This document shows, piece after piece, positions 13,243 through 30,728 of a DNA stretch of 30,728 nucleotides. The stretch is taken from contig CALKKA010000191.1 of NCBI GenBank assembly GCA_937995495.1, forward strand, positions 1 to 30,728, given 5' to 3'. Made by a program: the position numbers and the translations under genes. Within the stretch, counting starts at the first letter, position 1; each line of letters opens with the position of its first letter. The notes below the pieces were generated by a model, which was not told where the DNA came from, did no database searches, and worked only from the letters and a program-made list of their open reading frames with translations. The DNA is from an uncultured Phycisphaerae bacterium (GTDB lineage: Bacteria; Planctomycetota; Phycisphaerae; Sedimentisphaerales; Anaerohalosphaeraceae).

Positions 13243-13746
13243 ATGAGGTCATTTTTCTTTTCTGGATGGTTTTTTGCGGTATCTCTGTTGACTGTAGTTG
13301 CTGGCTGTCGTACCTCGAATATGCCTACCCCATCGGATGTTCTGCCGGAGGGGAGTTTAGCGGTTGATCGAATACGGATTTCGGCAATAACAGAGTTTGT
13401 TCCGGATCCTACTGCAGCAGACAGGGTGAACATTAAAACACTTGTCGAGTTGCTGAATGCTTCCGGATCGGCAACACAGGCACCCTGTGTCCTTCGCTTC
13501 GAATTTTATGAGTTTCACCCTCGAGCGTCCGATCCCCGTGGACGGCGTTTGTTAATCTGGCCGAATCAGAACTTAAGTGACCCTGACACGAACAAGGAAC
13601 ACTGGAAAGAATTTTTGCGTGGGTATGAATTTTTTCTCCCTCTCGAATTCAGGTTAGAAAGGGGCAGAAAATATGTCTTAGAAGCCACCTGCTTAATCAA
13701 TCAACGGCGTTATAGCGATTTTTTTAATATACAGTATCAACCTTAA
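13243..13746 (+). CDS. Hypothetical lipoprotein (167 aa)
   Basis: MRSFFFSGWFFAVSLLTVVAG-C signal peptide with lipobox; starts 4 nt after the ribBA stop; no family recognised. Confidence 0.7.
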   Translation: MRSFFFSGWFFAVSLLTVVAGCRTSNMPTPSDVLPEGSLAVDRIRISAITEFVPDPTAADRVNIKTLVELLNASGSATQAPCVLRFEFYEFHPRASDPRGRRLLIWPNQNLSDPDTNKEHWKEFLRGYEFFLPLEFRLERGRKYVLEATCLINQRRYSDFFNIQYQP

Positions 13747-13772: not shown

Positions 13773-14387
13773 GTGACAAACCTTAGTCGGCACAAAGATA
13801 ATATCAGCTTAGATGATGCGACCTTGGTTCGCCAGTGTCAAAACGGTGATCTTGAGGCGATGTCCTGCCTTATTGTCAAGTATCAGGACAGGATATATAA
13901 CACAATACTTAAAATTTGCCAAAATTATGACGATGCGGCGGAACTTACCCAAGATACATTTGTCAAAGTATTAGAGAACATTAATTCCTTTCGTAGCAAT
14001 AGCAGCTTTTATACATGGTTGTTTCGTGTGGCGGTGAACCATACGCTGAACTACTGCAAAAGGCGGTTCAAACTGTCACCTTTATCTTTGGATGCGGAAA
14101 TCGGCCAGGGTGAAGGGGCGAGAGGTAAAATTGCGGAGGTATTAGCCTCTCCGGATGGGCCGGATCCGGCCGTGGTTGCCCAGCAAAAGGAATTGACAAA
14201 GATTGTTATAAATTTAATAGGCCAGTTGCAGCAGGAGTACCGGGTGGTCCTAGTGTTAAGGGATATTGAGCAAATGACTTATGCCGAGATCGCTGAAGTA
14301 CTCCAAATTGAGACCGGAACAGTCAAAAGCCGGCTCAGCCGGGCTCGTGCAAAATTGCGTGAATTACTGGAAACGGTGCTAACATGA
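13773..14387 (+). CDS. ECF sigma-70 family sigma factor (#1)
   Basis: Region 2 (DDAAELTQDTFVK...SFYTWLFRVAVN) and region 4 (EYRVVLVLRDIEQMTYAEIAEVLQIETGTVKSRLSRAR). GTG start; exact start uncertain. Confidence 0.92.
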   Translation: MTNLSRHKDNISLDDATLVRQCQNGDLEAMSCLIVKYQDRIYNTILKICQNYDDAAELTQDTFVKVLENINSFRSNSSFYTWLFRVAVNHTLNYCKRRFKLSPLSLDAEIGQGEGARGKIAEVLASPDGPDPAVVAQQKELTKIVINLIGQLQQEYRVVLVLRDIEQMTYAEIAEVLQIETGTVKSRLSRARAKLRELLETVLT

Positions 14388-20525: not shown

Positions 20526-21554
20526 TCACGAATAATTAACTAATACCCGTTTAGCGGTTTCCGAATTGATTAGATTATTAGCGAGCAGTTTCTCAATGGA
20601 TTCAGCCATTGTAGACATGCCGTGTTTTTTGCCCGTGTCGATAACTGTTCGCAGGTGATAGCCGCCTCTTCGGCGAAGAATATTTTTTGCCCCCGTCGTT
20701 GAGGTCATGATTTCACATGCTACACGCTGGCCTCCGGTGACCAGCGGCAGCAATTCCTGATGGATCACACCTTGCAGCGTCTCAGCCAGCAGAAAGCGGA
20801 TTGTGTTTTCACCCTCATCGGGTGCATAACTAAGGATGCGTTCGATCATCTTATCGATCGAAATGACATGCAACGTTGAAAGTACCATAATACCGGTCTC
20901 GGCCGCAGTCAATGCGATTTTAATGGTTTCGTAATCTCGCATCTCACCAATAGCAATAACATCCGGGTCCTGGCGGAGAGCCGCACGCAAGCCCGTGGCA
21001 AATGTTTTAGTGTCTCGTCCGACTTCACGTTGACGGACGATCCCTTTTTTGTTTGTATGGACATACTCGATGGGGTCTTCAATGGTAACAATATGCTTTT
21101 TCTGCGTGGTATTGATGTGATCGATCATTGCTGACATCGTGGTTGTTTTACCCTGGCTGGTGCTACCAGTGATGAGAACCAGTCCTTTATCCTTTAGGGC
21201 TAGCGTTTTTACTATCTCTGGAAGAAATAATTCATCCGGTGTTTTTGGCTCTCCGGAAAGAACACGAACAGTCGCTCCCACAGCCCCATTAAAATAGCCT
21301 ACATTTATACGGAATCGTGAGCCGTTATAGGCCAGCATCAAATCAAAATCGAGATTACTTTCGAAGGCATCAATTTGTTCGGGCGTCAGCATCTCGTAAC
21401 ACAGTTCTCGACTTTTTTCATGGGAAAGCGAGTCTTCTGTTACCGGTTTGAGTTTGCCCCCGATACGAAACTGTACCGGCGCTCCTGCACAGATATGAAT
21501 GTCCGTGGCATGCTGCTCAACGGCGAAATCAAATAATTGATTGCGGTTCTGCAA
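20526..21554 (-). CDS. pilT: PilT/PilU-family type IV pilus ATPase (divergent)
   Basis: ATDIHI, RFRIN, Walker A GSTSQGKT, Asp box TIEDPIE, QREVGRDT, ALRQDPD..IGEMRD, TAAETG..STLH. TTG start with AGGAG SD. Confidence 0.85.
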   Translation of the reverse strand: MQNRNQLFDFAVEQHATDIHICAGAPVQFRIGGKLKPVTEDSLSHEKSRELCYEMLTPEQIDAFESNLDFDLMLAYNGSRFRINVGYFNGAVGATVRVLSGEPKTPDELFLPEIVKTLALKDKGLVLITGSTSQGKTTTMSAMIDHINTTQKKHIVTIEDPIEYVHTNKKGIVRQREVGRDTKTFATGLRAALRQDPDVIAIGEMRDYETIKIALTAAETGIMVLSTLHVISIDKMIERILSYAPDEGENTIRFLLAETLQGVIHQELLPLVTGGQRVACEIMTSTTGAKNILRRRGGYHLRTVIDTGKKHGMSTMAESIEKLLANNLINSETAKRVLVNYS

Positions 21555-21639: not shown

Positions 21640-22563
21640 TCAGTCTGGATCTTTGAACGAGACTATCCACTCCGGCCAGTCGGGCAGCGGTGCGGAGGTG
21701 TTGTAAGTTTTATGCCATTTCAGCCGCCATAGTTCTTTCGGGCTGATGGATTTGACCGTCCCGTCCATCACCAGGACATTCAGCTTTTCTTTATGACGGT
21801 TCACGGTGAACCGCTGCATGTGGTTCATGTGTCTGTCTGGCCAGTCGTAGGCAACTGATTCGGGTTCTGGCTCATTGACAAAACCGGGCATCTCCATCAT
21901 CGGAGGCATCGGACCGTTTGGCTCGCTCATTGGCGGCGGAATCATGCCCGGCATACCGGGTATTTGACCCATGGGAGCATCATAGCCGGATCGATTTTCC
22001 TGACCGAATTGGCCTTGTTCTTCTGGTGGCAGGTCAGTGGATTCGGGCCGCCCGGTGTACCAGAGTGCATCGGCCATGAGCGGGATTTTTGAACCGCCGT
22101 AATGGTCCATGGTTCGCCAACTGTTGGATGTGTCGTGGCCTTCAGTTTCCAGAACCTCTTTGGGCGTGTCGCCCAGCCAACCATTGAGGCCGTAGCTGCC
22201 GGAGAAGATATCTTCGATTTTACCGCCCCATCCCGAACGAACTGAGGGACAGGCTTTAAGTTTTGGCACTTGATAGTAAGATTTCAAGGCATAGGGCCAT
22301 AAATCTGAATTTCTGCTTGAGTGTGTTACGTCGTTGGGGTCGGTGTAGTCATAATAACCTGCAAAGAAATGGCTGTCATGATCTTCGGTATAAAGTGTCA
22401 GGATTAGACCCCACTGGGACAGATTGGCCATGCAGACTACTTGCTGTGCCCGTTTTTTAATCGCAGACAGTGCGGGCATGAGAATGGACAGCAACATCGC
22501 AATGATAGAGATCACGACAAGCAACTCGATCAATGTGAATCCGTTTTTGTTTTGAGTTTTCAT
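21640..22563 (-). CDS. Large type IV prepilin-like protein with C-terminal H-X9-DG motif (planctomycete DUF1559/SBP-like pilin class)
   Basis: MKTQNKNG|FTLIELLVVISIIAMLLSILMPAL class III signal; RH-KEKLNVLVM-DG; C-terminal LKELW-like ..LWRLKWH..WPEW; SD GGAG. Confidence 0.88.
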   Translation of the reverse strand: MKTQNKNGFTLIELLVVISIIAMLLSILMPALSAIKKRAQQVVCMANLSQWGLILTLYTEDHDSHFFAGYYDYTDPNDVTHSSRNSDLWPYALKSYYQVPKLKACPSVRSGWGGKIEDIFSGSYGLNGWLGDTPKEVLETEGHDTSNSWRTMDHYGGSKIPLMADALWYTGRPESTDLPPEEQGQFGQENRSGYDAPMGQIPGMPGMIPPPMSEPNGPMPPMMEMPGFVNEPEPESVAYDWPDRHMNHMQRFTVNRHKEKLNVLVMDGTVKSISPKELWRLKWHKTYNTSAPLPDWPEWIVSFKDPD

Positions 22564-22585: not shown

Positions 22586-22963
22586 TCAGTGTTTCAGTAC
22601 AAATTTCTGTGGATGTCTATATGAAAAGCGCCTGTCCTCTGCATGGCCGGTCACGGTGAATGTCGATCGATCACCTGCCTGTGAAATCAGCTCGATGGTA
22701 CAGGTAATGGTCTTATTTTCCTGATTAATCTCTAAGAGACGGGGTTGATCGCTGCTGATTGTGGCCTTTGGGTTCTTTTCGAGCCATGTGATCCCGCTTT
22801 CACAGGCAAACCGGGCGTGTGTTTTCAGGGCGGCCCGTCGTGTATTCGTCAGTATCTGCCGGCTGTTGGATGTCAAAACCACGCTTGCCATCCCCAGCAG
22901 CGGAATCAGTGCAATGACCAGCAGCAGGATGAATCCTTTTTGTCGGTTGGTTCGTTTCATCAC
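22586..22963 (-). CDS. Minor pilin, GspK/PilX-like (no Glu+5)
   Basis: Basic leader KRTNRQKG|FILLLVIALIPLLGMASVVL lacking E5, the pattern of GspK/PilX/ComGG-type subunits; translationally coupled to its neighbours. Confidence 0.6.
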   Translation of the reverse strand: MMKRTNRQKGFILLLVIALIPLLGMASVVLTSNSRQILTNTRRAALKTHARFACESGITWLEKNPKATISSDQPRLLEINQENKTITCTIELISQAGDRSTFTVTGHAEDRRFSYRHPQKFVLKH

Positions 22964-23442
22964 GGTTGAGCCTTTTTGAAAAATACGACGGTCTGCTTAA
23001 AACTAATTTGTTCTCTATCGGGGTCTTGTTGCTGATTCCATGTGGTCAGTTCGACGGCGTAAGGTCGGTCGCTTTGACTCCAGAGTCTGGTCTCTGTTTT
23101 GAGATGCGGAAGCTGCCAGATGTATTCCGCGCCCGCGTCATTCATGGCAGGGCGGCGGGCGATGTGTCCGTCGCTCAGCGTATAACGCACCATTCCGCCC
23201 GGTTGCTCCAGTGTCAGCACGCCGCCGGCAAGACCGGCAATGCGGTTGGAGCGCTCGATATCGTTTCTGAGTTGATCAAGGGCTTTCATAGAGCGGTTCA
23301 GTGTCTGGCAGACGCGGGCTGAATGCGGGATTTCCGAAACCAGCGTTCGCATCGGGCGAACGGACAACCCCATCAGGACTATGATCATGACGATGATCAC
23401 AAGCATTTCGGTCAGGGCGTAGGCGCGGCGTTTTATCTTCAT
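22960..23442 (-). CDS. Minor pilin, GspJ/PilW-like
   Basis: MKIKRRA|YALTEMLVIIVMIIVLMGLSV class III signal with E5; later LDQLRNDIERS helix typical of J/W-type subunits. Confidence 0.65.
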   Translation of the reverse strand: MKIKRRAYALTEMLVIIVMIIVLMGLSVRPMRTLVSEIPHSARVCQTLNRSMKALDQLRNDIERSNRIAGLAGGVLTLEQPGGMVRYTLSDGHIARRPAMNDAGAEYIWQLPHLKTETRLWSQSDRPYAVELTTWNQQQDPDREQISFKQTVVFFKKAQP

Positions 23443-23825
23443 TGGCCGTCTCCTTCTGCCGCCGGAAGATAGCGTGTAAGGTAGATCTGGACATTATTAT
23501 GCTTCACCTTTTTTCTGAGTGTCAGGTCAATCCTCTGTAGTCCCTGCCATTGACCGATGCCGTCGCTGGTTTCGATGGTGCAACTCACACCCGGCCAGAG
23601 TTTCTTAAATGTTGTCTCCTCTATCGGTTTGCCCGTTGATGTGATGGCATCGATCTGGGCCTGTCCAGCATTGTGGCAGGTGTGCCTGGCCCAGAGATTT
23701 TTGTTCAGCTTTCCAAATGAAACGCTCAATGCGACAAGCACCCCGATAATGGTGGCAATCACGCTGATGGCGACTACCAGTTCAATGCTTAAAAGACCTT
23801 TTTGTTTTCTATGTTTTTTCATCAT
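23439..23825 (-). CDS. Minor pilin, GspI/PilV-like
   Basis: MMKKHRKQKG|LLSIELVVAISVIATIIGVLVAL class III signal with E5; 128 aa; start 1 nt after the upstream stop. Confidence 0.65.
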   Translation of the reverse strand: MMKKHRKQKGLLSIELVVAISVIATIIGVLVALSVSFGKLNKNLWARHTCHNAGQAQIDAITSTGKPIEETTFKKLWPGVSCTIETSDGIGQWQGLQRIDLTLRKKVKHNNVQIYLTRYLPAAEGDGQ

Positions 23826-23826
23826 A

Positions 23827-25311
23827 TTATTGCGGTATCGTATATTGCAAAGCAACGTGTATTATGCTGAAAACCCCCATAAACATGGCGAAAACGACAT
23901 ATCCGACACACAGGCCCAGACACAGAATTATGACCGGTTCAGCGGCAGCGGTAAAAACATTTTTGCGGTAGTTATATTGATAATGATAAAGCGTTTCAAG
24001 ACTTTCGAGAATTTGAGGTGTATTACCTTTGTTAATCTTTTCGTCCATGGCCCAGCAAAGCGCTTTATCAAGACCGCAGATCTTTGCGGATTGAGCGATA
24101 TTGTCGCCGGCTTCAATTTTATTCAGCCATTTCTCCAGTCGTTTCTGATAGCATCGGTTGACATCCAGTCCCAAGGCATGCCTTACGATTATATTAACCG
24201 GATATCCCGCCGTAATCCCTGCACGCAAAGTTTGTGCAAGATATATGTTAGCAAATGTCTTCTCAAACCAATGCAACAAGGGTATATTCCACTTAATCCG
24301 ATCCCCGAGGCGGGATAGCAAACGGGGGCTCTCCGGGTTTCGCTTACAAGACAGAAGATATGCTTTAGATACCAAAAGTATAAAAACGGGCATCATGAAT
24401 AACAATGCGTTAAGGCCATTTCTTCCCAACATCCAGGAGGAGAAGTTCAGTAATGATTGAGTTGCAAAGGGAAGACCGGCTCGTCCGTCACTTATATCAG
24501 AAAGCACTTCTGAAAAAGTGGGAACAATGAAAATCATCAGGCCCATCATAATAAAGAAAGCGACAGTCAAAACGGTTGTCGGGTATATTAAAGCGTCGGA
24601 TTTTTCGATGTTTTTCGAGCCAATCTTTTCAGCGGCTTCTTTCTGGAGCGATTCGATTGCCCTGGGCAATTGGTCCATCTTTTCTGCGGTCGAAATAGAG
24701 GCCAGGATTTCGGAAGGGCATTTCGGGTATCCGCGTCGCAGAGCCTCCGACAGCGGCCAGCCCTGTGTGAGCCAGTGAGCGATATTATTAAAAACAGCGG
24801 CCTCTTTTTTCTTTTTGCCGTGTGCGGCGGTCGTCAGGGCCATCGGCAGGGGCAGTGATTGTCGAATGCACATTGCAATCGTCGAGATGATATCAACCGC
24901 CAAACCATATTTTCGAGCCTGGGCCCACTGGTAGCTTCCCATTAAGAATATGCCAAACAGGACAGGGCTAAAGAGTTGGAAAACGGCTATGAAGACAGCT
25001 AATATAATCAGATACTTAACAATTGTTAGAACAAAGCCGGTCACGGCTCTGTACCAAGGTGTTTCCAAACGGCTCGATGACGGTCCCCAGTGAATGATGC
25101 TGAATGCTGTCGGTACCAAAATGATGGAAAGAGCATACATTATAATTGCTTCATCGGGGATTCTTCCGCTTCCATCAAAACTGATAAGACCGGAAAAAAT
25201 AATCCATGCTGTAGTTGGTATTAATAAGATTAAGCCAATACCCGGTTTTTTCCATGCAAGGATGATGAAGCCCAAAAAGATAATAATATTTATTAAATAG
25301 AGTGTCCACAT
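23827..25311 (-). CDS. GspF/PilC-family platform protein with an extra N-terminal multi-TM domain
   Basis: About 135 aa hydrophobic N-terminus, then two GspF repeats (SLPLPMAL..GWPLSEAL..LPRAIESL; LIYP..FIVPTF..LP; EPVIILCLG..VFAMFMGVF). Confidence 0.75.
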   Translation of the reverse strand: MWTLYLINIIIFLGFIILAWKKPGIGLILLIPTTAWIIFSGLISFDGSGRIPDEAIIMYALSIILVPTAFSIIHWGPSSSRLETPWYRAVTGFVLTIVKYLIILAVFIAVFQLFSPVLFGIFLMGSYQWAQARKYGLAVDIISTIAMCIRQSLPLPMALTTAAHGKKKKEAAVFNNIAHWLTQGWPLSEALRRGYPKCPSEILASISTAEKMDQLPRAIESLQKEAAEKIGSKNIEKSDALIYPTTVLTVAFFIMMGLMIFIVPTFSEVLSDISDGRAGLPFATQSLLNFSSWMLGRNGLNALLFMMPVFILLVSKAYLLSCKRNPESPRLLSRLGDRIKWNIPLLHWFEKTFANIYLAQTLRAGITAGYPVNIIVRHALGLDVNRCYQKRLEKWLNKIEAGDNIAQSAKICGLDKALCWAMDEKINKGNTPQILESLETLYHYQYNYRKNVFTAAAEPVIILCLGLCVGYVVFAMFMGVFSIIHVALQYTIPQ

Positions 25312-25312
25312 C

Positions 25313-26512
25313 CTACATCAGCACCTGTATCATTTTGACCATGGGCAGGAACATTGCCAGAACGATGGTTCCCACGGTTCCGCCAAGAAATATGATTAAG
25401 AGTGGTTCCAGCAGACCCTGCATTTGCGATTGCAGCGAAAAGGTTTTGGCGGCGTACATTCGCCCCAGGCTGTTAAGGTTTTCTTTCAGTTCGTTCCTTT
25501 GGGCCCCCAGCTGTACCGAATACAAAAACAGCCGGGGAATCGTTTTGCAGCCCATCCCCGCTTCGAGGAAGTTGGAACCTTCATTAAGTTGGGCGGCCAG
25601 TATCCCGCAGTCCTGTTTGAGCAGTTCACTGCTGGAGGACTGGCCGGACAGTTCGACAGCATCGTTGAGTGTGCATCCGGCGTTGATCAAAACGGACATG
25701 CACTCGGAAAAACGGGCCAGTAAACCGTTCCTGAATACTCGGCCGATCAGTGGCAGTGATCGGAAAAAGTGTTCTTTGGTGCGCCGGCCTGCGGTGTTAA
25801 ACGACAGCGATTTCCAACAGAATACGGTCACCCCAACAACAATGCCAAGTCCCAGCCAGAAGTCCCACACATGCGCAGATACATCCAGGACAAATTCTGT
25901 TAAAAAAGGTAATCCAGCTTTACCGCCAGACATATCATAAAGAACCTCACCAAAGGTTGGCACAACAAATAAAAGTAAACCTGAGACGATCAAAGCTGCC
26001 GCCACCAGCACAACCGCTGGGTAAGTTAACGACTCGATGATAATCCGTTTCGTCCGCAGCTCAACCTGTAAATTCCGGTTAAGATTGGTCAGCATCTCGC
26101 TCAGTCGCCCGGTTTCCACACCGGATTTAAGGATAAGTCCATACAGTGGCGGAAAATCCTTTTGCCGTTTCTGTATGGCCTGATCAATGGGCAGTCCCTG
26201 TTCCAGATCATTGGCCACACCGTTAATCAGCGACCGCATCTTTGCCGACCCGGCGTCCTGTGCCAGCTCTCGCAGTCCCTGTTCCAGCGGAATTCCCGCT
26301 TTGGTCAGCGAAGCAAGCTGTTCATTGAACAGGACGAACTCATTGTGTCCGATGCTTTTGGGAGCCATCGATTCTTTGGTCTTTTCCAGTTCTGTGACCT
26401 GCAAGCCCATCTCGCTAAGGGATGACTTGGCCTGCTCGATGTCACCGGCTTCAATCGTGCCGGTCATCAAACGTCCGGCAGTAGTAACGGATCGATATTC
26501 AAATAATGCCAT
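25313..26512 (-). CDS. GspF/PilC-family platform protein
   Basis: MALFEYRSVTTAG..GTIEA; QLASLTKAGIPL..L; GVETGRLSEML; LTYP..FVVPTF; LLEPLLIIFLGGTVGTIVLAMFLPM. Canonical PilC/GspF. Confidence 0.9.
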   Translation of the reverse strand: MALFEYRSVTTAGRLMTGTIEAGDIEQAKSSLSEMGLQVTELEKTKESMAPKSIGHNEFVLFNEQLASLTKAGIPLEQGLRELAQDAGSAKMRSLINGVANDLEQGLPIDQAIQKRQKDFPPLYGLILKSGVETGRLSEMLTNLNRNLQVELRTKRIIIESLTYPAVVLVAAALIVSGLLLFVVPTFGEVLYDMSGGKAGLPFLTEFVLDVSAHVWDFWLGLGIVVGVTVFCWKSLSFNTAGRRTKEHFFRSLPLIGRVFRNGLLARFSECMSVLINAGCTLNDAVELSGQSSSSELLKQDCGILAAQLNEGSNFLEAGMGCKTIPRLFLYSVQLGAQRNELKENLNSLGRMYAAKTFSLQSQMQGLLEPLLIIFLGGTVGTIVLAMFLPMVKMIQVLM

Positions 26513-26539: not shown

Positions 26540-27688
26540 TCATGTCCCACAAACTCGTTTGATCTCGGTGCTCGTTGTGATGCCCTGATTGATTAACCTT
26601 CTGCCGTCCTGTATCAGTTTCATGTGCCCACGGGATTCAAAGGTTGCTTCCAAACCTTCCATATCGCTTTGCTTAAGGATCGTCTTGCGAACTTGCCCGT
26701 CCAACTCGACCATTTCGGCCAGCAGGACCCGGCCGTGGTATCCGGTATTGTGACATTGTTTACAGCCGCGGGGTTCGTAGCTGCCGTCCGGTTTTTTTTC
26801 TTTGCATTGATCGCAAAGTTTCCGCACGAGCCGCTGGTTGAGGATCGCCGAAACACCAGAGGTCACCTGATACGGTTCGATATTCATTTCCAGCAGGCGA
26901 AGCAGGGCACCGCTGCAATTTCCGCTGTGCATCGTACTCATCAGCAGGTGGCCGGTCAGTCCGGCCTCGATGGCGATCTTTGCGGTTTCAGCGTCACGGA
27001 TTTCCCCGATCATCAGCACTTCGGGGTCTTGGCGCAGCAGTGAACGCAGGGCAGTAGGAAATGTCATTTCTCTATGTGGTTCAATCTGAACCTGTGTTAC
27101 CCCCGCAATGGCTCTCTCGACCGGGTCTTCCAGTGCGACAATGCTTTTGCCGGAAAATTGCTGGAGGATGTATCTCAGCAGGGCCGCCAGTGTGGTGCTT
27201 TTGCCGCTTCCGGCGGGGCCGGTCAACAGCAGAATGCCCTGATTTCGGCAGGCAAATTGCATCAGCGCCGATTCAATCGTCGGATTAAAGCCCAGTTTAT
27301 CCAGCTCGGTCAGCGTATCATTTTCATAGAATATCCGAACCACCGCCCGCTGACCGTGAATGGTTGGGAAAACCGCCAACCGCTTGTCGATGACTTTGCC
27401 GGAGTCGGATATGACCAATTGGTCCTGCGTGCCTTCGATACGGCCTTCCTGTGGGATGTCATTGCGATAAGTCAGCAGATTGCCCAATACTTTCAGGCGG
27501 GAGATGACATTATCACGAATGGCGGCGGGTAGCGTCTCGAACGTCTTTAAGGTACCATCCATGCGGTATTTAACCTGCAATTCGGTGCTGGTCGGTTCAA
27601 AGTGGATGTCACTGGCTCCGAATTGGACGGCCTCTTCAAGAATGCTGTCCACCAGTTGGGCTATATTGGGTTGCCCAGAGTGTTTCAT
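26540..27688 (-). CDS. GspE/PilB-family extension ATPase, short form lacking the N1 domain
   Basis: GASDIHFEP, RMDGTL, PQEGR, GPAGSGKSTT, LEDPVE, LLRQDPEVLMIGEIRD, TGHLLMSTMH, QRLVRKLC, CxxC..CxxC Zn motif, GYHGR; only 382 aa. Confidence 0.9.
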   Translation of the reverse strand: MKHSGQPNIAQLVDSILEEAVQFGASDIHFEPTSTELQVKYRMDGTLKTFETLPAAIRDNVISRLKVLGNLLTYRNDIPQEGRIEGTQDQLVISDSGKVIDKRLAVFPTIHGQRAVVRIFYENDTLTELDKLGFNPTIESALMQFACRNQGILLLTGPAGSGKSTTLAALLRYILQQFSGKSIVALEDPVERAIAGVTQVQIEPHREMTFPTALRSLLRQDPEVLMIGEIRDAETAKIAIEAGLTGHLLMSTMHSGNCSGALLRLLEMNIEPYQVTSGVSAILNQRLVRKLCDQCKEKKPDGSYEPRGCKQCHNTGYHGRVLLAEMVELDGQVRKTILKQSDMEGLEATFESRGHMKLIQDGRRLINQGITTSTEIKRVCGT

Positions 27689-27737
27689 AAGTTATTTTCA
27701 ATAATGGAAATAAACCAGTTAGATTCGATTCGTTTCT

Positions 27738-27771
27738 ATATTTAAGACGTTCTCGATGGAAAAATGTTACC
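27738..27771 (-). promoter_or_regulatory. ECF-type promoter driving the gspE-pilT operon
   Basis: Minus strand GGTAAC (27771-66), N16, CGTCTTAAATAT (27749-38), preceded by a T-tract; AAC-N16-CGT is the general ECF promoter pattern. Confidence 0.75.
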
Positions 27772-27804
27772 TGAAAATAAAAAAAACTTTTTTTGAGGTA
27801 TTTT

Positions 27805-27838
27805 GGTAATATAATGGTTACTAAAGCGTCTTAAATAT
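27805..27838 (+). promoter_or_regulatory. ECF-type (auto)promoter driving ECF #2 and its anti-sigma
   Basis: GGTAAT (27805-10), N16, CGTCTTAAATAT (27827-38); mirror copy of the minus-strand promoter. Confidence 0.75.
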
Positions 27839-27867
27839 CAGAAGCTTCGATGATACTTAGGATAACC

Positions 27868-28443
27868 ATGGCCATTACTCCGACAAGTTTAGGGTTAACA
27901 TTTGACCTGACGCAGGCCGAATCGGTTCAGAAAAGTCAGCGCTGGGTGCTGGTGACGATGCAGGAATTCGGTCCGGCACTGGTGACGATGCTCTGGCGGA
28001 TTCTGGGTAATGAAGAAGATGTTTGCGATGCTTATCAGGATACGTTCCTTCGACTCGCTCACCTGCCGGATAAGAACAAGCCCGCCAATGTTCGCTCTTA
28101 CCTGTTTCGGACGGCTTCAAATGTCGCCATTTCAGTATTGAGGCATAAGCAGTTGCATCGTAAGCACCAGCGTGCCATTTTAGAAAAATATGAAACTCCA
28201 CAACATGATTTTGTCAGGGACCTCGATGCACCGGCTTTGCAAAAACGGCTTCGCGAGGCGATCGCTGAATTACCGGAGTATCTTGGCGATGTGATCATCC
28301 TGCGGGACCTTGCCCAGATGCCGTATCCGCAGGTTGCGCGGATCTTGGGGATTCGCACTGCCGCGGCCAGGGTGTACCGCCATAAAGCGATTAAGCTACT
28401 GGCATCGTGGATGTCAAAATCAGAAAACCGGGAACCATTATGA
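27868..28443 (+). CDS. ECF sigma-70 family sigma factor (#2)
   Basis: EEDVCDAYQDTFLRL..VRSYLFRTASN (region 2); LPEYLGDVIILRDLAQMPYPQVARILG..AARVYRHKA (region 4). Start ATG 27868 (AGGA SD) or 27850. Confidence 0.9.
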   Translation: MAITPTSLGLTFDLTQAESVQKSQRWVLVTMQEFGPALVTMLWRILGNEEDVCDAYQDTFLRLAHLPDKNKPANVRSYLFRTASNVAISVLRHKQLHRKHQRAILEKYETPQHDFVRDLDAPALQKRLREAIAELPEYLGDVIILRDLAQMPYPQVARILGIRTAAARVYRHKAIKLLASWMSKSENREPL

Positions 28444-28952
28444 AAACCGATACAAACACAAATCAATGCCGCAGGACGCGAAGGGGCCGATTGGGCCTGT
28501 GGGATGCGTTCCGAACACGACTTCTGGAGCGGTTGGGCGATCATGTCGCTGAATGCCCGCGGTGTCAAAAACGGCTGGCGACTGTAAATCGTGTCGAACT
28601 GGGATTGATGCTCATAAAAAGCCAGCCCCAGCAGATCGGGCTACTGTCGCGTGCCAATAGGCAGGCGCTGGATGGACTGAAGCATTCATTACGACATGCA
28701 CCCAAATCCGTTATTTTGCGAGGGGTCAATTCTGACATGAATCGGCTGGAAAAAATGCGTCCGGGCCTGGAGCGGTTGCTGAATGCTGCGGCGTGTGTTT
28801 TTGTAGTTTTGATGATTAAAACCGGGGTGTCCAACTCTCTGCTGAATTACCGGGAACAGGGAGAGACTGTCATCCATAACTATTATGCTCGTAATCTCGA
28901 TAGCCAAATCTTTGATGAAATATTCCCCATAGATTCTTCCTCCACCGGCTAA
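28440..28952 (+). CDS. Zinc-binding (ZAS) membrane anti-sigma factor for ECF #2
   Basis: ATGA-coupled; HVAECPRC = HxxxCxxC with an upstream Cys; single hydrophobic segment LLNAAACVFVVLMI; about 45 aa C-terminal tail. Confidence 0.78.
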   Translation: MKTDTNTNQCRRTRRGRLGLWDAFRTRLLERLGDHVAECPRCQKRLATVNRVELGLMLIKSQPQQIGLLSRANRQALDGLKHSLRHAPKSVILRGVNSDMNRLEKMRPGLERLLNAAACVFVVLMIKTGVSNSLLNYREQGETVIHNYYARNLDSQIFDEIFPIDSSSTG

Positions 28953-28982
28953 TTGGTCGTTGCACTGGATTTTCATTGAAGA

Positions 28983-29013
28983 TCGAAAAACTTCCTATTT
29001 TCGACCTCTTTTT
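28983..29013 (+). terminator. Possible weak terminator after the anti-sigma gene
   Basis: TCGAAAA/TTTTCGA 7-bp stem with 8-nt loop, then CCTCTTTTT; AT-rich stem, so weak. Confidence 0.3.
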
Positions 29014-29135
29014 AAAAGTCCCATAACATATCTTATGTTGCATTGGGAAAAAGGGGCGGCCTGTCAAATAATTAGGTTTTTGAGCTAGAATTGCTGTTTG
29101 GTGCTATTTTAAGCTTGTTGTGCGTATTCATTAAC

Positions 29136-30728
29136 CTATGGATGCCCCTGATGACACTTTCCTTCAATTGTCTTAAGCAGGCATGCGGAAGTTTCATTGA
29201 TCCGCTCCCAACTTGTGTAACTGCGATCAATGATCCCCAGTGATTCAAAAATGTCTTCCAGGTCAGCGCGTAATTCAAACGCCTCGTATGCGTCGGTCGA
29301 TTTTATGCGGCAGGCTTTTTTCATTGCTGCAGCAAAAGCTTTTTTGTCACAAAATAGCATCGTCATCTGATAATATTTTTCAAATGCGAACGCTTTACAT
29401 CTTTTCGTACTTGTGAGCATCTCAAATGCTTTTTCTGACTGTCCGTTATCTGAGAGGCAGATTGACAGCTTATACAATACTCGGTAATTCATTGGGTTTT
29501 GAGAGATTGAATTTTCGAATGCACAGATGGCTGCCTGAAGCCTGTTTTCATTCATCATCAAAATACCATATTTATTATAAACATCCGCCTGTGCTGAAGT
29601 ATTCTTAATTTTATCCTGATAGGCATGGATTACATGCTCAATCGTCACAATCTTTTTATCGGACTCTTTGCTGATGGTGTTATTTTCGTCTACAATTGAC
29701 TGGAACTGCAGTGTTGCTGCTTCTGTAAAGAGCAGGACACTGTTTTTCTGTATCGAAGACGCCAGTGAAAGGGTTTGCCTTGATTCTTCCTCTAAACCAC
29801 GCCGTTTTTGGGCAATTGCCAATCCCATATAGGCATCCAGTATCTCGTCGTTAATATCTGAGGCCTTATTGAATTCTTCCGCCGCAAGCGAAAAACGCTG
29901 ATTCCTCAAATAATGAGTACCCAGTTTTATCCTGGCTTCCAGCGAACTGGGTTGCAGGAGGATTGCATTCTCATAGCACGCGATCGCTTCCGATTCCTTT
30001 TCCCATTGGCTATAAACATCTCCCATCCGGATCAATAAGTCCTGTGACGGGCCCACCTGCTCAATCGTCCATTTGATCGCTTCCAGGGCCTGTTCAAACA
30101 TATCGCATTCAACAAGGGATTGTATTTCTTCGTCTCTTGCGGAGTCCATAAAATTATCAGGATGAGAAAGGATTCCAAGATTAAATGTATCAATGGCCTG
30201 TTCTGCTTTGTTGGATTCAAGATACAACTCTGCCAGCAGGATGATGGATGAGATGTCATCGGGATGTTCGGAGGTCAGTATTTCATACTCTTTGACCGCC
30301 CTGTCCAACTGCCCTTCTTTGAGGTAAATTGCGGCCATTCTCTGTCGCGGCAATTGAAGAAAGCTCTTGAATTTGATGCAATCCTGGTAAAACTCAAGGG
30401 CCTGCTCGATTTGCCCCAACCGCTCGTAACAATACCCCATCACATAAAGCGCCATCGTATTTGAGGGTTGTCTCAAATACACGCTCTGGGCCTGTTCAAT
30501 CGCTTCTTTTAGTTCATTTTGCAGGAGACAAACGGCTGCAGCGGCCATACGACCCAGAACGCATTCCGGAAAATCACTCAGATACTCACACGTCTTGTTT
30601 TCTGCCTGAATCAGTTCTCGATTTGCCAGGCAATCATGGATCATGATAAGAAAGCTAGTGCGTTCAGATGGCTCCTCTTGTGAAAGTTTTCGGCCGAGCC
30701 AGTGCCGGACAACTTCTGCGGTGTTAAC
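29136..30728 (-). CDS. Tetratricopeptide-repeat protein (5' end beyond right edge)
   Basis: Multiple TPRs (ALYVMGYCYERLGQIEQALEFY, LIRMGDVYSQWEKESEAIACYENA, YNKYGILMMNENRLQAAICAFENS). I read the frame as open from 30644 to the window end, so the true start lies outside. Confidence 0.85.
   Translation of the reverse strand, partial: VNTAEVVRHWLGRKLSQEEPSERTSFLIMIHDCLANRELIQAENKTCEYLSDFPECVLGRMAAAAVCLLQNELKEAIEQAQSVYLRQPSNTMALYVMGYCYERLGQIEQALEFYQDCIKFKSFLQLPRQRMAAIYLKEGQLDRAVKEYEILTSEHPDDISSIILLAELYLESNKAEQAIDTFNLGILSHPDNFMDSARDEEIQSLVECDMFEQALEAIKWTIEQVGPSQDLLIRMGDVYSQWEKESEAIACYENAILLQPSSLEARIKLGTHYLRNQRFSLAAEEFNKASDINDEILDAYMGLAIAQKRRGLEEESRQTLSLASSIQKNSVLLFTEAATLQFQSIVDENNTISKESDKKIVTIEHVIHAYQDKIKNTSAQADVYNKYGILMMNENRLQAAICAFENSISQNPMNYRVLYKLSICLSDNGQSEKAFEMLTSTKRCKAFAFEKYYQMTMLFCDKKAFAAAMKKACRIKSTDAYEAFELRADLEDIFESLGIIDRSYTSWERINETSACLLKTIEGKCHQGHP

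Follow-up and report, generated by a model that had tools for sequence, protein, structure and literature searches.

Putative back-to-back ECF-type promoters join a predicted autoregulated ECF sigma factor to a type IV filament operon in Phycisphaerae

Introduction

Promoters recognized by ECF sigma factors canonically carry AAC in the −35 box and CGT in the −10 box, separated by a spacer of 16 to 17 nucleotides (nt). In Bacillus subtilis, the promoters of sigma-X, sigma-W, and sigma-M read TGTAAC or TGAAAC, then N16-17, then CGAC, CGTA, or CGTC.

Most ECF sigma factors are autoregulated and adjoin their targets (PMC7826278). In the PhyR/NepR-EcfG system of the Alphaproteobacteria, the promoters of two divergent units both depend on the ECF sigma encoded at the locus itself, which gives positive feedback (PMC8103513). 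The ECF sigma factor VreI and its regulator adjoin the Hxc T2SS cluster, and genes of that cluster are upregulated when the sigma is overexpressed (PMC2729926). Other ECF sigma factors are dedicated to one secretion system, HrpL (group ECF32) to type III secretion (PMC7826278) and EcfK to type VI secretion (PMC8103513); ECF32 is not self-regulated, according to a legend in PMC7826278. In the literature that we searched, we found nothing specific that ties an ECF sigma to type IV pili or a T2SS in Planctomycetes or Phycisphaerae, and no description of the sigma family treated here or, for Phycisphaerae, of its association with a type IV filament operon.

Here we analyze a locus of an uncultured Phycisphaerae bacterium at which an ECF sigma gene and a type IV filament operon diverge from a short intergenic region. 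The window is the whole stretch of DNA that was analyzed, 30,728 nt of contig CALKKA010000191.1 (assembly GCA_937995495.1). An earlier note, made from the letters of the window, had proposed that one symmetric switch in this region drives both units, and we compared its claims with related genomes, with the rest of the assembly, and with contigs from DNA and RNA libraries.

Results

The sigma factor and its predicted anti-sigma factor

Two overlapping genes form the plus-strand unit:

27868-28443, plus strand: ECF sigma factor, 191 aa (Pfam Sigma70_r2 and Sigma70_r4_2; TIGR02937)
28440-28952, plus strand: predicted anti-sigma factor, 170 aa (ATGA overlap with the sigma stop codon; H-x3-C-x2-C, one hydrophobic helix, C-terminal tail of ∼39 aa)

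The sigma factor has the two expected Pfam domains (PF04542 and PF08281) in a protein of 191 to 197 aa, and its score of 68.3 bits against TIGR02937 (cutoff, 42.9) places it among the ECF (group IV) sigma-70 factors. None of the NCBIfam subfamily models matched it at its own cutoff; the superfamily model alone did. The open frame extends from 27850. In the alignment, however, every ortholog lines up from the Met at 27868, with an AGGA before it. Thus, the true start is probably 27868 and not 27850.

The zinc motif of the downstream protein reads HVAECPRC in the window, and H-x3-C-x2-C is retained in 28 of the 33 proteins encoded downstream of the sigma orthologs. The hydrophobic segment and the tail of 28 to 44 aa that follows it are also conserved among relatives. 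The protein had no Pfam match at E values up to 0.01 and no NCBIfam match, hence no curated family profile such as zf-HC2. Because it combines the H-x3-C-x2-C motif with a single hydrophobic helix and a tail of ∼39 aa, and because of the position of its gene, we predict that it is a membrane-anchored anti-sigma factor with a zinc motif (ZAS, class I).

The window encodes a second ECF sigma, at 13773-14387. A candidate box, GGAAC-N17-CGTG, lies at 13595-13626, ∼180 nt upstream of that gene and inside the preceding open frame.

The filament operon

The minus-strand unit runs from 27688 to 20526 and comprises the following genes:

26540-27688, minus strand: first operon gene, a short GspE/PilB-type assembly ATPase of 382 aa without the N-terminal domains (PF00437, 1.9e-104; aligns to residues 109 to 485 of TIGR02533)
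25313-26512, minus strand: GspF/PilC platform protein, 399 aa (PF00482 twice; TIGR02120)
23827-25311, minus strand: divergent second platform protein, GspF-like, 494 aa, extended at the N terminus (PF00482 twice, from residue 142)
22586-23825, minus strand: three small genes, overlapping or abutting (∼128, 160, and 125 aa), each with a hydrophobic prepilin-like segment at the N terminus; weak GspG match for the middle gene only
21640-22563, minus strand: large pilin, 307 aa (PF07963, TIGR02532), with the methylation motif GFTLIE at the N terminus and an H-x9-DG block near the C terminus
20526-21554, minus strand: PilT-family ATPase, 342 aa (TIGR01420, 361 bits against a cutoff of 319), 85 nt past the pilin gene

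Most junctions in this unit are overlaps or gaps of 1 to 27 nt. No terminator-like site was found in the 85-nt gap between the large pilin gene and pilT or elsewhere in the minus-strand unit, and cotranscription of pilT with the operon is plausible. The divergent GspF-like gene adjoins the first gspF gene in relatives too, and the order of the three small pilin genes is kept there. The conserved core of the operon consists of gspE, the two gspF genes, and the three small pilin genes. The large pilin gene comes next in near relatives, and pilT is part of the arrangement in this window only. In seven larger regions from relatives, pilT was not beside the orthologous operon, and the lineage of the window may have gained it recently. 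Two relatives have ∼1.2 to 1.3 kb of extra DNA between gspE and the first gspF gene (L062, 8182-9414; L066, 1740-3058), where the gap in the window is 27 nt.

A GspE/PilB ATPase, a GspF/PilC platform protein, and prepilin-type subunits, the components by which a type IV filament system is recognized, are all encoded in the operon. Family profile searches of the operon found no secretin, no prepilin peptidase, and no alignment proteins (GspC/L/M or PilM/N/O). Other contigs of the assembly carry one peptidase A24 match and two secretin matches, and the promoter matrix described below has no match above 14 bits there. This means that the switch would govern the inner-membrane core and the subunits, not a complete machine. 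The earlier note had spoken of a dedicated, ECF-controlled filament system. The system is not self-sufficient, since the peptidase and the secretins are encoded elsewhere without the motif.

Two predicted promoters in the intergenic region

Between the first gene of the operon, which starts at 27688, and the open frame of the sigma on the opposite strand lies an intergenic region of 161 nt (27689-27849; 73% A+T) that contains five elements:

27738-27749, minus strand: extended −10 box of the gspE-operon promoter, reading CGTCTTAAATAT on the minus strand (predicted start near 27734-27738; matrix score, 32.5 bits)
27766-27771, minus strand: −35 box GGTAAC of the gspE-operon promoter (the plus strand reads GTTACC), 16 nt from CGTC
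27779-27794, no strand: A8-C-T7 tract, equivalent to two T-runs, one per strand, each just upstream of a −35 box
27805-27810, plus strand: −35 box GGTAAT of the sigma promoter (GGTAAC at the equivalent site in relatives; matrix score, 27.3 bits)
27827-27838, plus strand: extended −10 box of the sigma promoter, reading CGTCTTAAATAT (predicted start near 27838-27842)

Read on the plus strand, the element at 27738-27749 is ATATTTAAGACG, the exact reverse complement of CGTCTTAAATAT at 27827-27838. The perfect 12-nt inverted repeat that the earlier note had described is therefore real, and both direct reading and a pattern search find it. The pair is absent from the 20 pairs listed in a repeat search of 27400-28200. 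As had also been described, GGTAAC or GGTAAT precedes CGTC on its own strand by exactly 16 nt in each case (spacers, 27750-27765 on the minus strand and 27811-27826 on the plus strand), and A8 (27779-27786), C (27787), and T7 (27788-27794) lie between the two sets of boxes. Both promoters fit the ECF form, with an AAC-type −35 box and a CGT-type −10 box 16 to 17 nt apart, one before the sigma gene and one before the putative target genes; the exception is the TAAT on the sigma side. A promoter search of the intergenic region found no sigma-70-like promoter.

The 12-mer, with at most one mismatch allowed, occurs in the window only at these two places (expected number, 0.11). Perfect inverted repeats of at least 12 nt appeared in 18 of 5,000 shuffles of the 161-nt, 73% A+T region. 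The pattern GTAAY-N16-CGTC has three matches in the window where 0.26 are expected. The third, a plus-strand GTAAT-N16-CGTC at 29270-29294, falls within the 3' end of a minus-strand TPR gene, scores below 14 bits with the matrix, and is probably a chance match.

Conservation of the promoter motif among relatives

We searched 301 genomes of the class Phycisphaerae for the sigma factor, and 32 were positive. Across 401 genomes of the phylum, matches were confined to the window's own family, with none outside the class at an E value of 1e-25. The back-to-back promoter layout is kept in ∼30 related genomes, and from this the sigma is very probably a dedicated switch for a pilus- or secretion-type machine.

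The genes are arranged in four ways. At 20 loci the sigma gene and gspE are divergent, as in the window. In L005, gspE follows the anti-sigma gene after a gap, and the second box sits in that gap. In L025 and L027, gspE comes directly after the anti-sigma gene, and the locus is a single operon in one direction. In five genomes gspE is 3 to 9 kb away from the sigma and anti-sigma genes or on another contig.

The earlier note had named motif conservation upstream of orthologous loci as a check on its proposal, and the motif is indeed kept, going with the genes in all four arrangements. Among the 20 divergent loci, the strict pattern TAAC-N16/17-CGTC is present on the sigma side at 14 and on the gspE side at 17, with both sides positive at 13; in the controls, shuffled sequences gave ∼0.08 and the reversed pattern gave 0. 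Most of the sides that lack the strict pattern have a variant with one base of a box changed. L010, for instance, has TGTC, L021 has CTCTTA in one promoter and CCTCTTA in the other, and L023 has GTTAT on both sides. On the sigma side of L028 and L033 we identified no counterpart of the box. Where gspE is separated from the sigma gene or unlinked to it, the box still precedes the ortholog in four of five cases and is replaced by the GTTAT variant in the other. No box lies upstream of ten full-length gspE paralogs in the same genomes.

Of 33 promoters, 26 have a 16-nt spacer and 7 have a 17-nt spacer. The consensus is TTTT-nn-GGTAAC-AT-N14/15-CGTC-TTA, often with a g before CGTC, and the −10 element is CGTC[C/T]TA. 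Certain variants occur in both promoters of a genome: both −10 boxes of L021 are without the G of CGTC, and both −35 boxes of L023 are GTTAT. L040, from the same family as L023, has the GTTAT variant before gspE. Such paired, lineage-specific variants hint, at the level of sequence, that the sigma and its boxes may have coevolved. Within genomes, the two promoters covary weakly (−35 block, P = 0.03; −10 block, P = 0.075), and we draw no conclusion from this.

The sigma gene and the short gspE gene are jointly present or jointly absent. Five genomes of the family, 98 to 99% complete, are without the sigma, and their best GspE match is 41% identical and 570 to 720 aa long, so these genomes are also without an ortholog of the short gspE. 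The most distant sigma matches (L029, L030, L034, and L035; 39 to 42% identity) lack a neighboring gspE, and the protein encoded after them is longer than in the orthologs, with 87 to 178 residues past its most hydrophobic segment. By these features they look like members of a paralogous ECF subgroup and not like orthologs.

Genome-wide specificity and size of the regulon

The assembly that we searched has 1.4 Mb in 199 contigs and is 57% complete. GGTAAY-N16-CGTCTT occurs in it at the two window sites only, and the reversed-pattern control gave 0. We then scored the assembly with a promoter matrix trained on 31 promoters, all of them from other genomes, with the window left out. The two window sites ranked first and second (32.5 and 27.3 bits), and the next site (17.2 bits) lies inside a gene. 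Thus, in the genome-wide scan that the earlier note had suggested, the two sites of the locus stand alone at the top of the 1.4-Mb assembly. At 57% completeness, the assembly may miss further members of the regulon.

In G145, a complete genome of the same genus, a scan for the motif gave seven matches versus four in the reversed control, and the only intergenic ones were the two sites of the locus and one before a small lipoprotein gene. These numbers indicate no clear wider regulon. The third site in G145 (GTAACAT-N15-CGTC; L056, 1501-1525) lies between a gene for an NtrC-type response regulator and the gene for the small putative lipoprotein (∼190 aa); it could be a further member of the regulon or a chance match.

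DNA and RNA contigs

A DNA contig with a depth of 18 spans 26993-29300 without a joint. In 14 DNA runs from seven studies, all the sampled words of 27300-28300 were present in the orientation of the window. The sources of this near-identical DNA were marine, estuarine, and other sediments and seawater, and its presence in 14 runs from seven studies indicates that the population is geographically widespread. The earlier note had also asked whether the 12-mers are recombination sites; the contigs and runs show a single orientation, although rare forms could escape contigs.

Contigs from RNA libraries cover both units and the body of the operon, and none crosses 27726-27799. They are unstranded, with depths of 2 to 4, too shallow to place transcription starts. 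One ends at 27725, inside the predicted leader of the minus-strand transcript and in line with its predicted start. Another, from run X18 (27800-28062; depth, ∼3), spans both boxes of the sigma promoter and does not fit the start predicted on the plus strand, which lies 39 nt downstream of the contig's first base. This contig is either DNA carryover or an additional transcript from upstream or from the opposite strand.

What is conserved in the intergenic region

The symmetry of the 12-mers is perfect in the window, reaches 11 of 12 in one relative, and is much lower elsewhere. When the 8 nt after CGTC are compared between the two promoters of a locus, all 8 agree only in the window, 7 agree in L004, and 2 to 5 agree elsewhere; the mean similarity of these 8 nt is 4.3 within genomes versus 3.5 between genomes. 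Because the symmetry is not conserved beyond the window and L004, the palindrome is a lineage-specific by-product of two similar extended −10 boxes that point outward. The claim of one symmetric switch thus survives in part. The two back-to-back ECF promoters are kept, but the symmetry is not, and the conserved parts are TAAC, CGTC[C/T]TA, and the spacing of 16 to 17 nt.

In most promoters a run of T lies just before the −35 box of either strand, so that a single strand shows an A-run followed by a T-run. At each of the four positions 5 to 8 nt upstream of TAAC, 17 to 24 of the 33 promoters have a T. The region from one −35 box to the other is 26 to 65 nt long, mostly 37 to 46 (33 in the window), and its A+T content in relatives is mostly 75 to 87%. 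On these compositional grounds, the A8-C-T7 tract may possibly serve both promoters in a role like that of an UP element.

Alternative explanations

Could the promoters be genuine ECF promoters that are read by a different ECF sigma, such as the one at 13773-14387, with the adjacent sigma gene being a target in a cascade? Many ECF sigma factors share AAC- and CGT-type boxes, and a second ECF sigma is present in the window. But the box goes with the adjacent sigma gene in ∼30 genomes, the sigma and the operon are present or absent together, and lineage-specific variants hit both promoters of one genome (the loss of G in L021 and GTTAT in L023). The candidate box of the second sigma, GGAAC-N17-CGTG, also has a different −35 element. 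We consider it quite unlikely that another sigma is the one that serves these promoters. Chance likeness in a region that is 73% A+T, with motifs as short as these, has next to no probability and was rejected, contradicted as it is by the comparative data: the conservation in ∼30 genomes, the controls at zero, and the ranking by the matrix.

The remaining alternatives concern the repeat itself. The 12-mers could be half-sites for a dimeric or looping regulator of both divergent units, their likeness to promoters being secondary; so perfect a repeat is uncommon in this region (18 of 5,000 shuffles), and divergent genes often do have common operators. What is conserved, however, is TAAC at a fixed 16 to 17 nt from CGTC on each strand and not the symmetry of the palindrome, which is complete (8 of 8) only in the window and nearly so (7 of 8) in L004. 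A single box is present where gspE is unlinked, and the distance between the −35 boxes ranges from 26 to 65 nt. An operator with dimer half-sites is very unlikely on this evidence, and we rejected it: its symmetry is not kept, its boxes occur singly, and its spacing is variable. It is scarcely conceivable that the 12-mers are instead the ends of an invertible 77-bp segment, a phase-variation switch of the fimS or hin type, for which the sole support is that inverted repeats bound a short segment bearing promoters. A flip would exchange two nearly equivalent promoter halves, with little effect; gspE and the sigma gene lie on either side, and neither encodes a recombinase; and the repeat is not conserved among relatives. 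The DNA contig of depth 18 has no joint, and the 14 DNA runs show one orientation, although contigs may miss rare variants. An invertible promoter was therefore rejected as well.

Discussion

Observed here are the motif and where it lies, how far it is conserved, how specific it is, and which genes it is linked to. That the boxes are read by the adjacent sigma factor alone is inferred, as are the start sites and an activating signal. We put the probability at about 0.8 that, as the sequence comparisons suggest, the locus is a positive-feedback ECF switch, in which the adjacent sigma serves its own promoter and that of the gspE operon. The earlier note had assigned control of the sigma/anti-sigma pair and of the gspE operon to this sigma, and conservation of the boxes, their specificity, and the gene linkage speak for that assignment.

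In such a switch, the plus-strand promoter would drive the sigma factor together with its translationally coupled, membrane-anchored, zinc-motif anti-sigma factor, making the sigma positively autoregulated. The minus-strand promoter would drive the operon of gspE, the two gspF genes, and the minor and large pilin genes, probably with pilT. Once the anti-sigma let go of the sigma, RNA polymerase carrying that sigma would fire both promoters, so that in a single step the sigma would amplify itself and the core of the type IV filament would be turned on. The 12-nt inverted repeat would then be two extended −10 boxes facing apart, and the A8-C-T7 tract would be paired T-runs, each preceding a −35 box.

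A more speculative thought is that the sigma/anti-sigma pair might act as an assembly checkpoint for its own filament, with platform or pilin components, themselves induced by the sigma, controlling whether the anti-sigma is retained or set free. This would be analogous to FlgM and sigma-28 of flagella. The invariable pairing with one operon, the two-promoter regulon, the zinc motif, the single membrane helix, and the short tail of 28 to 44 residues are all compatible with a checkpoint, which we nevertheless regard as unlikely. To our knowledge, a feedback circuit of this kind has not been described for any type IV filament.

An autoregulated ECF sigma whose target operon lies next to it is a textbook principle of regulation, and the wiring is solid but fairly ordinary. 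The locus provides a promoter motif that can be tested directly and a one-sigma, one-machine regulon for an uncharacterized filament system with two platform proteins, a system widespread in anaerobic Phycisphaerae from marine sediments. The sigma could be a handle for turning the machine on, in a relative that is in culture or in a heterologous host, and so for learning its role. The sigma, the anti-sigma, and the promoter set are also a candidate orthogonal part for synthetic circuits.

Comparison with known systems

With the sigma-X, sigma-W, and sigma-M systems of B. subtilis, the locus shares the AAC-containing −35 box, the spacer of 16 to 17 nt, the CGT(C) −10 box, and a promoter before a sigma/anti-sigma operon. 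It also shares an anti-sigma that is cotranscribed and membrane-anchored, both of which are predictions here. It differs in belonging to another phylum, in having a sigma that in NCBIfam matches only the ECF superfamily model, and in its apparent regulon, which is a single machine and not cell envelope stress.

The closest parallel in layout is PhyR/NepR-EcfG, where divergent units at the sigma locus also have promoters for the locus's own sigma (predicted in our case). There, however, the divergent unit encodes the pathway regulator PhyR, whereas here it encodes the output machine, and release of the sigma there occurs by partner switching. VreI and Hxc offer the same neighborhood, an ECF sigma and a regulator beside a T2SS-type gene cluster. 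Yet VreI belongs to a cell surface signaling system with a partner resembling a TonB-dependent receptor, and there is no receptor at this locus, where the anti-sigma is a small zinc-motif protein. The VreI regulon also includes a two-partner secretion system and other genes, compared with the two promoters of the apparent regulon here.

As with HrpL of ECF32 and EcfK, one ECF sigma would be assigned to one envelope-spanning machine, although the machines are different. Unlike ECF32, the sigma factor described here appears to be autoregulated.
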